Assembly (NCBI GenBank): GCA_963831885.1
Contig: CAWHSJ010000008.1
Coordinates: 154,922-178,921 of the forward strand
DNA from: an uncultured Chloroflexia bacterium
Lineage (GTDB): Bacteria; Chloroflexota; Anaerolineae; Anaerolineales; Villigracilaceae
Length of the DNA stretch: 24,000 nucleotides
Direction of reading: 5' to 3'
Part shown: piece by piece, positions 1,773-16,948 of the stretch
Numbering within the stretch: position 1 is the stretch's first letter
How the letters are laid out: every line of letters starts with the position of its first letter
Notes under the pieces: model-generated
Told to the model about the DNA's origin: nothing
The model's input: the letters and a program-made list of their open reading frames with translations, nothing else
Databases searched by the model: none
Translations under genes and position numbers: made by a program

Positions 1773-3672
1773 ATGGAAACCACAACCGAGAACGGGGAAA
1801 TCCTCCCGGCTTCTGCTAAAGATAAAAACCCCCCCGTATCCTTCAGATCGGTCAACTGGAACCGCCTGTTCGGCTACCTGCAACCCTACCGCGGCCGCAT
1901 GGCCCTGGCCATGCTGGCGCTGCTGTTCTCCAGCGGCTTCGGCCTGGCCTTCCCCCTGGTCATCGTCCGCCTGCTGGATTCGGTCACCAAGGCCAAGGAT
2001 TTCGGCCTGCTCAACCTGCTGGCCGGCGTCCTGGTGGCGATGTTCCTGCTGCAGTCCGCCTTCACCTTCGCCCAATCCTACCTCCTGTCGTATATCGGCG
2101 AGCGAATCGTTTATGACCTGCGCACCTCGCTCTACCGCCACCTGCAGGCGCTCTCGCTGGACTTCTATGCCACCCGCCGGGTCGGCGACCTGGTCTCGCG
2201 TCTCTCCAGCGATGTGACCCAGATGCGGTCAATGCTCACCAGCAACCTGACCACCCTGCTCAGCCAGGTGATCGGGCTGGTTGGCTCCGTCACCATCCTG
2301 CTGACCCTCAACGCCCGCCTGACCCTGTTCATCCTCGGGCTGGTACCCTTGCTGGTGGCCATCGCCTTCTTCTTCGGGCGGACCATCCGCAAGAGCAGCA
2401 CCAAGATCCAGGATGAGCTGGCCGGGTCCACCGTGGTCGCCGAAGAGGGCCTGCAGGGCATCCGCGTGGTCAAGAGCTTCGGGCGGGAAGAGTACGAGAC
2501 CCGCCGCTACGATACTGCCATGGGAAAGACCTTCCGTGCCTCCATCAAAATGGCCGTCACCAATTCCGCCTTTTACGCGCTGATGACCTTCCTGGGCTTC
2601 ACCTCCATCGCCGCCATCATGTGGTACGGCGGCCGCCAGGTCATCGCCGGGCCACTTGAGCGTGGCCATGATCGCCGGCTTCCTGATCTATGGCATCTCC
2701 ATCGCCGCCAGCGTGGGCGGCCTGGCCGGCCTGTACGGGCAGTTGAATGCTGCCATCGGTGGGGTGGTGCGTGTCTTCGAGATCCTGGATACGCCGCCCA
2801 CCATCCACGATGAACCCGAGGCGCAGGCCATCCCCTCCAGCAACGGCCGCATCTCCTTCGAGAATGTCTGTTTCAGCTACGACGGCGGGGCCGTCGTCTT
2901 GCAGGATGTCTCCCTGGACATCCGCGCAGGCGAGATCCTGGCGCTGGTGGGACCCAGCGGGGCGGGCAAGAGCACCCTCTTCAACCTGATCCCCCGCTTC
3001 TATGACCCGAGCGAGGGCGTCATCCGCCTGGACGGGCGGGACCTGCGGTCCATTACCCAGGCCAGCCTGCGCGACCAGCTGGCCATCGTCCCGCAGGAGG
3101 CCATGCTCTTCGGCGGGACCATCCGCGAGAACATCCTCTATGGCCGCCTGGATGCAACCGAAGACGAGCTGGTTGCCGCCGCCAAAGCCGCCAACGCCCA
3201 CGATTTCATCACGGCCTTCCCCAAAGGCTATGAGACCCTGGTGGGGGAGCGGGGGACGAACCTGAGCGGCGGGCAGCGCCAGCGTATCGCCATCGCCCGC
3301 GCCATCCTGAAGGACCCGCGCATCCTCCTGCTGGATGAGGCCACCAGTTCGCTGGACAACGAATCCGAAGAACTGGTCCAGGAGGCCCTCAACCGCCTGA
3401 TGCAAAACCGTACGACCGTCATCATTGCCCACCGCCTCAGCACCATCAAGGTGGCCCACCGCATCGCCGTGCTGGAGACCGGCTGCATCCTCGAGCTGGG
3501 CACGCATGCCGAGTTGATGGAGAAGAACGGCCTGTACGCCCGCCTCTACTCCATGCAGTTTCGCAATCCAGAAGAGGACCTGGCGGCGCTGCTGGCCCGT
3601 TCCCAGGACGAATTTGCCGATGGGAAAAACACCTCCAGGAAACGCACCGGCCTCCTGAACATGCTGCGCTAA
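1773..3672 (+). pseudogene. ABCB-type (MsbA/multidrug-exporter-like) fused permease-ATPase, split by a single-base insertion near 2652 (true pseudogene or assembly error)
   Basis: ORF 1773..2813 encodes the six-TM domain. ORF 2656..3672 encodes the end of the TMD plus the NBD. NBD motifs: Walker [10 protein letters not shown], signature LSGGQRQRIAIARA, Walker B ILLLDEATSSLD, H-loop IIAHRLST. The frames join as ...MWYGGRQVIAG | HLSVAMIAGFLIY... if one C of GGGCCAC (2649-2655) is removed. Total length is 1900 nt, which is 3n+1. AGGAGA lies 7 nt upstream of ATG 1773. Confidence 0.9.
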
Positions 3673-6439: not shown

Positions 6440-6484
6440 TTAACGCGGGATCCGGTTTGCGCGGTGTTCGAGAGAGGCATTGTC

Positions 6485-6937
6485 TCAATCTTTCCCACCG
6501 AAGTGACTAAGGGCAATGAGGGCTGCTGAAACTACGGCTACAGCGATCGCAAAGAGTAATGAGTTGTACGGGTCTTTCCACTCAACCAAGTGCTCAAGAA
6601 ACTTGACTACCATTACAAGGATAATCACTCCGCCAAGTTTACTTTTAAGTTCATGGAGATTATGGGCCAACATCCAGTCGGGAAGGGCAAGTTCGTTGAT
6701 AAAGAGCTCGTACATGCTTACCGCAAAGACGAATAGAGCAGTGGCAATAAGGAAACTGTCTACCAGTTCTATTAATGAAACAGCGATATACGGGTCTTGG
6801 CCGTAACTTGTGGCAATGACAATCATCGCGTTAACGGTCTTCACGGCGCCCCAACCAAACGCTGCTACCGATGCCAAAAGCAGAGAAATGACGCCAACGA
6901 TACTCAAGTACCTGGTTTTTTCAAGAAACTTTCCCAT
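6485..6937 (-). CDS. YqhA/UPF0114-family small inner-membrane protein
   Basis: 150-aa ORF with three or four TM segments. Its layout (N-terminal FLEKTRYLS..., a central SLIELVDSFLIATALFVF helix, and a C-terminal KSKLGGVIILVMVVKFLE) resembles YqhA as I recall it. Confidence 0.6.
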   Translation of the reverse strand: MGKFLEKTRYLSIVGVISLLLASVAAFGWGAVKTVNAMIVIATSYGQDPYIAVSLIELVDSFLIATALFVFAVSMYELFINELALPDWMLAHNLHELKSKLGGVIILVMVVKFLEHLVEWKDPYNSLLFAIAVAVVSAALIALSHFGGKD

Positions 6938-7542
6938 TCAAATCTCCCTAAGGCTTGCGGCCCTCATTTTTCTTATAATCCGGAATTGCTGTGCCGGGTC
7001 AGCCATTTTTCTTTCCTTATGCTTGCTCTTCTGGCCGTCCAATGGCATAGTTCAGTGGCAGCGGCAGAACTGGTGATACTCACTCCATTTTAGCGCTATT
7101 TCTGGCAAAAACGCGCTCGCCATCCCAGGTTTGATCTTTCTCGCAGTACCTGCCAGTCGTATCCTCGGGCTGGATGCATGGTTGCATCCACGCCTTCAGG
7201 CCGGAGCAAAAAAGTGAAATTGGCTGGTGAAAATCCTATTGTACCTGACCTGATCCCAAGAGTTGAGCCGGGAATATGCGTATTCAAGGGGAAATATAAC
7301 TTACCTTGAAATTCAAGTTCGAATGACGGAGTTTCAAGATATAATTTCTCCTACATTCGGTTTGGATAACAATGGGCTCGAAACCTGCTCACTTCCATCC
7401 TGAAGAACGAGTAAGCCCATGTCGACTTTCTTAAGGCCAGTAGAACAGATCAATTGATGAGGATCCAAATCCAACTTCTGCGCAGGCGAAAAAAAGTTCG
7501 GTCAACCCATTTCTGTTTTAGGATATCAAAGGAGGTCCTACC

Positions 7543-8311
7543 ATGTCTGAAGAAAGAACATATACAGGATTGCGTCGCTTTAACCTGGTGATGGGCTTCC
7601 TGCACCTGGCGCAGGGCATCTTTATGATCGCCATCAGCAACGCCACCACCTTCCCGGTCTACACTAACTTTCTGCGCTTTGACCACGCAGAAGATGACCC
7701 TGGTTCCCAACCCGACCCTGGCGTACAACCTGCGCTTCGGCCCGGCAGTGGCGGTTTTCCTGCTGCTCTCCGCCCTGGCCCACTTTGCCCTGTCCACCTT
7801 CGGGTACAAGTGGTATGTGGCCAAGCTGAAGAGCGGGATGAACCCGGCCCGCTTCTATGAATACGCACTGAGCTCTTCGCTGATGATCGTGCTGATCGGC
7901 ATGCTGGTCGGTGTGTCCGACCTGGGGGCTTTGATCCTGATGTTTGGCGTCAACGCCATGATGAACCTGTTCGGCATCATGATGGAATTGCACAACCAGA
8001 CTACCAAGAAAACGGACTGGACTGCATACATTTATGGCTGCCTGGCCGGGATCATCCCCTGGATTGTGATCTTTATGTACTTCTATGGATCGCTCGGTTC
8101 CTCGGATGCCAAACCGCCCGCGTTCGTGTATGCCATCGTCCCGACCATCTTCGTGTTCTTCAGCATCTTTGCCGTCAACATGGTGCTGCAATACAAAAAG
8201 GTCGGTCCCTGGAAGGACTATCTCTTCGGGGAACGCATGTATATCGTCCTGAGCCTGCTCGCCAAGACCGCCCTGGCCTGGCAGATCTGGGTTGGCACTC
8301 TCCGGCCCTGA
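7543..8311 (+). pseudogene. Heliorhodopsin (about 255 aa), interrupted by a single-base insertion around 7678-7682 (true pseudogene or assembly error)
   Basis: ORF 7543..7860 (MSEERTYTGLRRFNLVMGFLHLAQGIFMIAISN...) and ORF 7679..8311 join into one 7-TM protein. That protein is collinear with heliorhodopsin 48C12 as I recall it. RFYEYALSSSLMIVLIG corresponds to RWVEYSLSSSVMIVLIA, which carries the counterion Glu. GERMYIVLSLLAKTALAWQIWVGTL corresponds to GERAYIVLSLVAKSALAWQIFSGTL, which carries the Schiff-base Lys. The His residues in FLHLAQ and LAHF are present. AGGAGG lies 7 nt upstream of the ATG. Length is 769 nt, which is 3n+1. Confidence 0.9.
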
Positions 8312-8332
8312 TCAATATCACCAAATCAAGCA

Positions 8333-8367
8333 GGCCCCCACGGTCACAATGACCGTGGAGGCCTTTT
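8333..8367 (+). terminator. Rho-independent terminator of the heliorhodopsin gene
   Basis: The sequence is GGCC-c-CCACGGTCA caa TGACCGTGG-a-GGCC followed by TTTT. That gives a 13-bp stem with one mismatch and a 3-nt loop, 22 nt after the stop codon. Confidence 0.8.
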
Positions 8368-8421
8368 GCTTTCCAATGAACTGGGTTACATCAGGTACAT
8401 CTTGCACAACCTGGGCGAGAG

Positions 8422-8766
8422 CTAGAGCACCAGAATTACCCCGAAGACCACTTCCACCGCCAGGCTGATGATGTTGGACTGCACCACCGATTTATCCAGG
8501 AACATGGAAACGGTCCGCACGAGGGCAATGGCCAGGTACATGATACCCAGGGCTTGATAGACCGCCGGGGTCCCAAGGATGAAGGGGGCGATGCCCAGGC
8601 CGATGAACAGGGCACCCATCACGGCCCGGATCTCGGTGATGCCGCGCGGCCCGGTGGCTTCCAGGCCGGTGAAACCCTTGATCGAACGCGGCGCCAGCAG
8701 CGAGATGAAGCCGGTCGCCACAGTCCCGACGGCGCAAATGATTTTTAGGATTTGCAGGATATTCAT
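8422..8766 (-). CDS. DUF4345-like small four-TM membrane protein
   Basis: 114-aa ORF with four hydrophobic helices. The central ITEIRAVMGALFIGLGI matches the EIRA..G.L..GLG pattern I associate with DUF4345. Confidence 0.6.
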   Translation of the reverse strand: MNILQILKIICAVGTVATGFISLLAPRSIKGFTGLEATGPRGITEIRAVMGALFIGLGIAPFILGTPAVYQALGIMYLAIALVRTVSMFLDKSVVQSNIISLAVEVVFGVILVL

Positions 8767-8780
8767 GGGTTTTCTCCAGC

Positions 8781-15415: not shown

Positions 15416-16948
15416 GTTGTAGTTTAGACTAACTGAAATGCCCCAGCCAGGCTGGGCAATTCGATTTGGACTAGCAAGAAAAAATCAGGCCGTTAGAATC
15501 GGCTGATTTTTTTTAGGACGACCTCTTTTAGGCTTTTGCCCTGGAATTTTAGGCTGTTGATGAGCTCTGACGACACGCCAGCGTTTCGAATAGATCAAAT
15601 CGAAGCGTTCTCGATGTTTGCGGACACGTCCAATGGACCAGCCGGGAGCAATTCCACGAGGTTTGCACACGCGGGTAGGTGTACCAATCGCCACGAGAAT
15701 GTTTTGCATGCCCTGGCAGACCCGACCAGGAGTCAAGTGGAGTTGCGATCTTTGCCAGGGTAAGGGGCTATCCTGAACAAAAGGACGGGCCAGCCACAGT
15801 TCCCAAGTAATCAATGGCATGAGATCGCTCCAACGTTGACCCTGGGAGGCAGTGCTCAGTCGGGGCAAGGTCCAGTGGAGTCTTCCCTTGGCAAAGCGGT
15901 ACCAATGGTCAATCGGGTAACGCCGGTTGTACAGCTTCCACCAATGATCCGGTGGGGTTTCACCAGCCCAGCCAAACCAGACGAGCTTCGGCTTCCGCCG
16001 AGTCCCCGGAGCTTGATCCCGTTCGATGCAAGCCACTTGCATACGGCAGTTCAAAGCCTTGCCGAAACGCAATCCATTCCAGACCCGGATCGTCACTGAA
16101 CCGAATTCGACCTCCGTCTCATTAAATACCTGATCTGGCGTCCACCAGGTGCTGGGATCCTGAAACTTGAATTTGAGACCATGTTTCGGATATGGCCCCC
16201 GCCCACGATAGGGCTTGGTGGGGCCTTCCAAAGACAAATTTGTTCGCAAACGCATGAGTTTATTCGCTTTCACATCGGCCGTTGCGGAGAGGAAAGCGGC
16301 ACAGCCATACTCCGAATCCCATAGGCTAATTGGGCGGATAATCAATTGCTGACATACTTGCCGCAGTTGTTGCGCCGCCTTTTCCACCGGTCTTTGATCA
16401 GAGATACGTTCATGCAGCAAGGGCAGCGCCCAACTCCCGTTGGATTCAGGAATGATCGCCAGGGTACTGTATCCGTGTCCGATGGTCACTGGACGATGCA
16501 CGGGAATAGGCGAATCCTGGTGCTGATAGCTGCGCCCGGCCAGCGTGCTGGCCCATAAACGTGGCCAGGCTGTATGATCCCCCGCCAAAATCAATTGTGT
16601 TTCGTCGGTGAGTTGTTGCAGATACAAGTGCAATAACCCTTCTCGATCGGGCCGACCATCCTGCAACGCTTCATAGGCACTCGACCATTTCCTCCGAAAG
16701 GCGGGAGCGCAGGACAGTTCCACAAAAGATTGGGGATGTTGCATTTGGATCACGGCATCGGTCAGTTCAAACAGGGCATCTTGAGCTTTCCCCATCAGAC
16801 TATACGCCGCTTGACGAAATACTATCAGTTTGCTAAAGTTGCCCTTAGCACAAGAGTTATGTTTGTCAGACATATCTCTATTGTGCATCTGGGCGACTTG
16901 TTCACACAAGCCGCCCAGATCCTTTACTCAAATAGTCTAAACTACAAC
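15416..16948 (-). mobile_element. IS4/IS701-superfamily insertion sequence (1533 bp) with 16-bp perfect terminal inverted repeats and a 6-8-bp target-site duplication
   Basis: The left inverted repeat is GTTGTAGTTTAGACTA (15416-15431). The right inverted repeat is TAGTCTAAACTACAAC (16933-16948). Direct repeats TTTCAT lie at 15410-15415 and 16949-16954. They extend to CTTTCATG if the outermost inverted-repeat base is counted as part of the duplication. Confidence 0.85.
15485..16909 (-). CDS. DDE transposase, IS4/IS701-like
   Basis: 474-aa ORF with a TTG start. Candidate catalytic regions are ILAGDHTAWPR and SLWDSEYG. The C-terminal YNRRYPIDHWYRFAKGRL fits the Y-2-R-3-E/D-6-K signature of IS4-superfamily transposases. 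Confidence 0.75.
   Translation of the reverse strand: MCEQVAQMHNRDMSDKHNSCAKGNFSKLIVFRQAAYSLMGKAQDALFELTDAVIQMQHPQSFVELSCAPAFRRKWSSAYEALQDGRPDREGLLHLYLQQLTDETQLILAGDHTAWPRLWASTLAGRSYQHQDSPIPVHRPVTIGHGYSTLAIIPESNGSWALPLLHERISDQRPVEKAAQQLRQVCQQLIIRPISLWDSEYGCAAFLSATADVKANKLMRLRTNLSLEGPTKPYRGRGPYPKHGLKFKFQDPSTWWTPDQVFNETEVEFGSVTIRVWNGLRFGKALNCRMQVACIERDQAPGTRRKPKLVWFGWAGETPPDHWWKLYNRRYPIDHWYRFAKGRLHWTLPRLSTASQGQRWSDLMPLITWELWLARPFVQDSPLPWQRSQLHLTPGRVCQGMQNILVAIGTPTRVCKPRGIAPGWSIGRVRKHRERFDLIYSKRWRVVRAHQQPKIPGQKPKRGRPKKNQPILTA

Follow-up and report, generated by a model that had tools for sequence, protein, structure and literature searches.

The stretch of DNA analysed here (the window; 24,000 nucleotides of contig CAWHSJ010000008.1, assembly GCA_963831885.1, positions 154,922 to 178,921) harbors at window positions 7543-8311, on the plus strand, an ordinary heliorhodopsin (HeR) gene of an uncultured Anaerolineae (Chloroflexota) bacterium. 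In the assembly the gene is spread over two reading frames, and skipping one base yields a single protein. We consider it likely, with a probability of roughly 0.8, that the gene of the organism itself is intact and encodes 255 amino acids, and that the extra base is a consensus error of an error-prone assembly. The original prediction had called this a heliorhodopsin with all hallmark residues; family models and structure-based alignment agree with it. Other features that it had singled out turn out to be less unusual: lipid-type neighbours and missing retinal genes have already been described for the heliorhodopsin family, and the long empty region upstream of the gene is explained.

Both pieces of the gene match the Pfam family Heliorhodopsin (PF18761; cut-off 26.7 bits). 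The first open reading frame (ORF; 7543-7860, plus strand, frame 1, 105 amino acids) covers model positions 1-45 with an E-value of 4.5e-8 and 33.2 bits, and the second (7679-8311, plus strand, frame 2, 210 amino acids) covers positions 40-242 with an E-value of 6.4e-86 and 288.1 bits. The 255-residue read-through of the two, P0121, contains one four-letter step at the junction. It covers the entire NCBIfam HeR equivalog model NF038020 (1-244 of 244; cut-off 100 bits) with 366.6 bits, and the cut-offs of both families are exceeded. Among solved structures the best match is TaHeR from the Thermoplasmatales archaeon SG8-52-1 (PDB 6IS6 and 7U55, and 7CLJ with an aspartate as counterion). Codons 1-47 (7543-7683, plus strand, frame 1), which include H21 in the first transmembrane helix (TM1), correspond to PF18761 positions 1-45 and TaHeR chain positions 11-50 and are nearly identical to those of the intact relatives P0001-P0009. 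Codons 50-255 with the stop (7691-8311, plus strand, frame 2) contain H80, E106 and K241, and residues 56-255 of P0121 align to TaHeR 6is6 with an E-value of 8e-66 and 225 bits. It is the only HeR locus in the whole genome (5.23 Mb, 25 contigs).

The residues that define the family are all in place. In the alignment to 6is6, H21, H80, E106 and K241 of the window protein (numbering of the 255-residue protein) fall on chain positions 29, 88, 114 and 244. The lysine of the Schiff base, K241 in TM7 (SLLAKTALAWQ), pairs with the lysine of SLVAKSALAWQ, and the counterion E106 in TM3 (RFYEYALSSS) pairs with the glutamate of RWFEYSISAS, a column in which PDB 7clj has D instead of E. H21 in TM1 pairs with the histidine of MGVIHLIQ and H80 in TM2 with that of SATAHIL. 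With a constant offset of 6, the four positions in 6is6 are what we take to be H23, H82, E108 and K238 in the published TaHeR numbering. All four residues are without variation across an alignment of 14 relatives. Thus, the family search and the alignment that the original prediction had proposed as a check place Lys and Glu in the homologous columns. The assembly as given does not contain the gene as one uninterrupted frame of about 250-260 codons.

Close relatives with 94-98% identity encode intact HeR proteins of 255 amino acids. The relatives compared here include G015/L070 (MFD04408.bin.2.42; HeR 98% identical), L071 (MFD00709.bin.2.28; 97%) and the metagenome contigs L003-L008. When the DNA is aligned with that of intact relatives, the extra base falls in the interval 7683-7690 of the plus strand, inside the segment 7650-7700 in which a one-base break had been predicted. 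Compared to L009 (the DNA of P0001, with the loop FDTQKM) the window has an extra C (GA[C]CACGCAG), and compared to L003, L004 and G015 (loop FDPAKM) the gap lies five bases further on (GC[A]GAAG). The two codons at the break are the most variable of the gene (TQ, PA, TT or IQ in relatives) and therefore the base can be placed only within this interval; the protein has 255 residues under either placement. Across the 4.45-kb block 7497-11949, aligned four ways with G015, L003 and L004, there are only two coding indels, and both are 1-nt insertions found in the window alone, one in HeR and the other near 9036 in a neighbouring DUF1475 gene. The HeR gene differs from that of G015 by 3 non-synonymous and 49 synonymous changes, giving a ratio of non-synonymous to synonymous rates (dN/dS) of 0.015, and has no second defect. 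By this measure it is under strong purifying selection that has not been relaxed.

Frame breaks of the same type occur throughout the assembly. ORFs of at least 150 amino acids were taken from 400 kb of G017, a genome of the same genus, and from 400 kb of G038, a finished genome in one contig from the same order. These ORFs served as tblastn queries against the entire window genome, and pairs of collinear alignments that switch frame were counted as junctions. With the queries from G038, 9 of 128 orthologs contained frame switches, at 10 junctions in all; with those from G017, 13 of 154 did so, at 14 junctions. About 7-8% of the conserved genes in the assembly, roughly one in thirteen, have a single-base frame break. 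At 20 of the 24 distinct junctions an extra base must be skipped (10 of 10 for the G038 queries). In the reverse control, with the ORFs of the window genome against 400 kb of G038, junctions numbered 0 in 129 and, at relaxed thresholds, 0 in 205; the method thus does not invent junctions. Applied to G017 (C1:1-400000), the reverse test found 16 such junctions among 183 orthologs. Long-read metagenome-assembled genomes (MAGs) of the genus seem to share the error problem. Several genomes of the same genus have few contigs and yet a completeness of only 67-88%.

The only good match to proline-tRNA ligase (proS) is broken twice and runs through three frames (C12:1076909-1078668), and TsaE (C10:193676-194183), an NADH-quinone oxidoreductase subunit of the NuoL type (C11:535245-537300), a 2-oxoacid dehydrogenase E2 and an alpha-glucan phosphorylase are broken as well. 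The window itself holds a third break, in an ABC exporter with fused TM and ATPase domains (1773-3672). Its ORFs 1773-2813 and 2656-3672 align to residues 4-259 and 278-576 of Sav1866 (PDB 2hyd), with one surplus base between about 2650 and 2813. Mid-gene nonsense codons were absent from about 48,000 aligned residues. In-frame stops were considered as a sign of decay and discarded, as none of the nine is more than 20 residues away from the end of its alignment, where the query ORFs, taken from stop to stop, extend into untranslated sequence. No long homopolymers were found at the genome-wide junctions. A motif shared by the HeR and DUF1475 insertions (7683-7690 and 9030-9040), CCACGC followed by GAAG within 1-2 bases, was also tried as a common cause. 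It is not enriched elsewhere, with CACGC at 1.5 per kb in the 24 genome-wide junction intervals and 1.7 per kb in the genome, and the resemblance is probably a coincidence.

How, then, should the break in HeR be read? A frame-break load of about 7-8%, with a proS gene broken twice, would be impossible in a living cell, and hence these breaks are unlikely to be biological as a class. Natural decay would also bring nonsense mutations and deletions, and the absence of mid-gene nonsense argues that the breaks are not decay. If the frameshift in HeR were nevertheless real, the gene would be a very recent pseudogene, caught in the decay of a light-response module from which DUF2177 has been deleted and in which DUF1475 is frameshifted. 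We regard this as improbable, although it has some evidence on its side. The break is present in the assembly. By comparison with L071 some 3.17 kb have been deleted, and with them the genes for a P-type ATPase and for DUF2177, the neighbour most specific to HeR; no DUF2177 is left elsewhere in the genome. HeR is patchy in the genus (present in 3 of 24 other genomes searched), and its loss is therefore common. However, the breaks across unrelated conserved genes are nearly all single extra bases, the low dN/dS and the lack of a second lesion do not fit a gene released from selection, and in G015, L003-L008 and L073 there is no DUF2177 beside HeR, yet HeR is intact. The original prediction had allowed for a dead gene should independent reads confirm the frameshift along with further disabling mutations; the assembled gene has no such further mutations, and an assembly error, one among hundreds of single-base errors in this genome sequence, is favoured.

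Several observations weigh against the assembly-error reading. The extra base was judged an error by comparison of assemblies. The break sits at CC or AG and not at a long homopolymer. Two of the seven genes of the 4.45-kb block are broken, which together with the DUF2177 deletion can be read as decay of a module. Finally, the Nanopore-only origin that would favour an error is no more than probable for the window genome itself, judging by how contiguous it is (25 contigs, 5.2 Mb) and by its kin. Among public genomes the MFD MAGs are closest, and these are Nanopore-only Flye assemblies with a single round of Medaka polishing (PMC12313526). A quite different possibility would be programmed +1 ribosomal frameshifting or transcriptional slippage that regulates synthesis of full-length HeR. 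Its only support is that the two frames overlap and a +1 shift restores the full-length protein. In all relatives examined the frame runs through this place without interruption, no slippery run of a homopolymer or repeated codon was seen at 7675-7695, no two codons of the gene are less conserved than those at the break, and breaks that look identical are dispersed over unrelated genes of the assembly. Programmed shifting thus seems very improbable to us, far more so than a recent pseudogene.

Since about one conserved gene in thirteen has a single-base frame error, a practical caution follows for this genome: a gene should not be taken as decaying because it is split. Calls of pseudogenes, estimates of completeness and inferences of missing functions from this and sister long-read MAGs call for checks at the level of reads, and the assembly should be polished before genes are called pseudogenes or absent.

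The signals around the gene are largely those that had been predicted. The Shine-Dalgarno sequence AGGAGG (7530-7535, plus strand) lies 7 nt before the ATG at 7543 and is conserved in L003, L006 and L071. Downstream, between HeR and the convergent DUF4345 gene, a hairpin at 8332-8364 (predicted at 8333-8367) has a 15-bp stem with a free energy of -28.7 kcal/mol and a z-score of -6.6 and is followed by UUUU. It is likely a bidirectional terminator.

Upstream, the 605 bp from 6938 to 7542 indeed contain short ORFs only, but the special meaning that an ORF-free stretch of this length might suggest did not hold up. The UPF0114 gene (6485-6937) and everything from 7001 on are common to the window and L071, with window 6446-7011 corresponding to L071 3718-4283 and window 7001-11830 to L071 7458-12289. 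Between these two segments L071 has the additional 3.17 kb or so, comprising the gene of a 922-residue P-type ATPase and that of a 147-residue DUF2177 protein, which is divergent from HeR and by its annotated start lies 495 nt upstream of it. An 11-nt microhomology, AGCCATTTTTC, is present at both L071 breakpoints and one copy is left in the window. The deletion has left a 3' remnant of the ATPase gene (6938-7011, minus strand), followed by 7012-7542, which aligns near gap-free and with few mismatches to 7470-8000 of L071, the intergenic region between the divergent DUF2177 and HeR genes there. The HeR promoter presumably lies within 7012-7542; a TATAAT at 7340-7345 is conserved in L071. DUF2177 (PF09945) had no match anywhere in the genome, while control genomes were matched. 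A structured RNA or riboswitch was considered for the 605 bp and rejected, with no Rfam match in the whole window, this region included; the region is unique in the genome, as 7012-7542 has no second copy. From these alignments we conclude that the ORF-free region consists of the scar of a deletion and the intergenic region that it left in place between formerly divergent genes, with no special leader. Homology to G015 and L003 starts only at 7497, and the upstream context is thus variable in the group. The deletion (window 6938-7048 versus L071:4236-7505) also fuses the ribosome-binding site and start codon of DUF2177 to the last 21 or so codons of the ATPase, giving a 36-residue ORF at 6938-7048 on the minus strand.

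The claim that HeR has no obvious partner gene nearby had to be given up. Convergent to HeR runs an operon of six genes (11814 to 8422, minus strand), which includes DegV and DUF1295, two of the three published characteristic neighbour families. In the order of transcription it encodes two unnamed proteins of 156 and 178 amino acids (10806-11814), a DegV-family protein, a DUF1295 protein, a DUF1475 protein and a DUF4345 protein, all on the minus strand. The two unnamed genes have no Pfam family above threshold and are conserved in G015, L003, L071 and L073. The DegV-family protein (9931-10767; PF02645, E-value 2.7e-76; TIGR00762, 269.7 bits) is of the fatty-acid-binding, FakB-like type. DUF1295 (9134-9949; PF06966, E-value 1.5e-73) resembles membrane enzymes of the fold families of steroid reductases and methyltransferases. 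The DUF1475 gene (8781-9108; PF07343) has the extra base near 9036 mentioned above, absent from G015, L003 and L004, and its longest ORF is 84 amino acids long compared to about 110. The last gene of the operon encodes the small membrane protein DUF4345 (8422-8766, 114 amino acids; PF14248, E-value 2e-9), which adjoins HeR in 11 of 80 species-representative loci. In the window HeR is not on the strand of these genes, as a common transcript would require; it is convergent to the operon, with the strong hairpin between them.

The synteny comparison that had been proposed shows the DegV/DUF1295 block to recur beside HeR in part of the relatives, and DUF2177 to be present in L071 and lost in the window. 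The convergent arrangement, with DUF1475 and DUF4345, is kept in G015 and L003-L008. In L064 (4261-7831) and L065 (4606-7882) all genes lie on one strand in the order DegV, DUF1295, DUF1475, DUF4345, HeR, and L016, from another family of the order, is likewise co-directional as far as the locus reaches, which is into DUF1295. In L015 HeR comes first and is followed by DegV and DUF1295, the only two families matched. The linkage of HeR with DegV and DUF1295 thus recurs in three gene orders among the relatives, two of them with DUF1475 and DUF4345. HeR has thus moved and turned around with respect to DegV and DUF1295, which lends weak extra support to a possible functional link. Inverted repeats flanking HeR were considered as a cause of the inversion relative to L064, L065 and L016, but apart from the terminator hairpin the window showed only pairs expected by chance.

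Beyond the operon, homology to G015 and L071 stops near 11830-11949. A gene for an IS110-family transposase (12145-13599) lies directly upstream of the promoter region of the DegV operon, and a DDE_5 transposase gene is located farther on (15485-16909).

The window contains no crt or blh gene, as had been predicted. However, a lack of retinal genes near HeR has been published as the usual state and is not notable: blh is rare among HeR neighbours, and the genomes that contain both blh and HeR mostly have a further rhodopsin (Chazan et al., bioRxiv 10.1101/2021.02.16.431466). The absence of blh here is therefore the expected state. In the whole genome, searches for an RPE65-type oxygenase and a lycopene cyclase (PF05834) were negative, with control genomes positive for both. 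Searches for Blh/BCD (PF15461) and type-1 rhodopsin (PF01036) gave no match either, but the controls were equally silent. Genes similar to crtB and crtI exist on C25 and C17 and are broken into several frames. They form two crtI-like and crtB-like pairs (G000:C25:1741-4129 and G000:C17:34084-36470) with each crtI in three frames, and the pairs may represent two strain variants that were binned together (contamination estimate 3.25%). As the genome yielded none of the known enzymes that form retinal, the chromophore would have to be scavenged or made by an unknown route; the lack of such an enzyme is common in HeR-bearing prokaryotes. A light switch of the B12/CarH type was considered for the locus and rejected, as the B12-binding domain PF02607 was matched on contigs C12 and C2 only and not on C8, the contig of the window. 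A search for the triple operator repeat nAnnTnnACAn gave a single match with 3 mismatches (14044-14074), which is at chance level.

By homology to TaHeR and 48C12, the basis for retinal binding, topology, photocycle and absence of ion transport alike, the window protein would bind all-trans retinal as a Schiff base of K241, and E106 would be its sole counterion. It would have the inverted seven-TM topology of the family with a cytoplasmic N-terminus, and would act as a slow-cycling light sensor that passes its signal to other proteins rather than as an ion pump. A role as photosensor is in our view probable. The products of the DegV/DUF1295/DUF1475/DUF4345 operon would be the most likely functional partners in this lineage. 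That the output of HeR acts on this lipid module is a tentative proposal drawn from the gene neighbourhood, which we judge rather unlikely to be correct. It also has to be set against the distribution of the neighbours: genes of the operon type occur in 11-13 of 80 species-representative HeR loci of the Anaerolineae type, mainly those with HeR at least 82% identical. Some equally close HeRs are found in other contexts: in L067 the neighbours are DUF2177 and a pair of histidine kinase and response regulator, in L009 a SOUL-domain gene. Still a little more doubtful is the wider idea, which the recurring gene orders may suggest, that HeR, DegV, DUF1295, DUF1475 and DUF4345 form one light-responsive membrane-lipid module. 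If it were true, DUF4345 and DUF1475 would be additional partners of HeR, in the usual place of DUF2177 and unnamed in the publication on HeR neighbourhoods.

Compared with characterized heliorhodopsins, the window protein resembles TaHeR most. The two share His, His, Glu and Lys in the same columns and the conserved motifs ELHNQTT and NM-LQYKK-G-WK. However, TaHeR is archaeal, and the loop after TM5 is 5 residues longer in the window protein. The founding heliorhodopsin HeR-48C12 from Lake Kinneret Actinobacteria (PDB 6SU3 and 6UH3) is second-closest (174 bits compared to 225 for TaHeR) and belongs to the same family and length class. We take H80 and K241 of 48C12 to carry the same numbers as in the window protein, and K241 and E106 of the latter to be homologous presumably to K241 and E107 of 48C12. 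The window protein thus scores nearer to TaHeR, a group B member, than to 48C12 of group A. Group A is mostly actinobacterial, and group B contains the Chloroflexi protein BcHeR along with TaHeR (Chazan et al., bioRxiv 10.1101/2021.02.16.431466). The orthologues of G015/L070 and L071 and those annotated as heliorhodopsin HeR in Anaerolineales MAGs (P0058, P0118) are the same 255-residue protein but with 3-10 substitutions, and unlike the window gene they have open frames. In L070 and L071 the downstream block is as in the window, while the upstream context departs from it at 7497 (G015, L003) or 7001 (L071).

At the level of the neighbourhood, DegV and DUF2177 have been described as the most characteristic neighbours of HeR, often together with DUF1295, in an association that is not universal and that stems mainly from Chloroflexi and Firmicutes (Chazan et al., bioRxiv 10.1101/2021.02.16.431466). 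The window agrees with this pattern, and with the lipid-remodelling hypothesis of the same authors, in having DegV and DUF1295 in the adjoining operon and no blh, and its close relative L071 has DUF2177 divergent from HeR. It differs in that its own DUF2177 has been deleted, in the convergent orientation of HeR to the operon, and in DUF4345 and DUF1475 lying between DUF1295 and HeR, two families unnamed in the main text of that paper. The locus is hence a further example of the published HeR-DegV-DUF1295 neighbourhood, to which it adds the small increment that two more families of small membrane proteins travel with it in this lineage.

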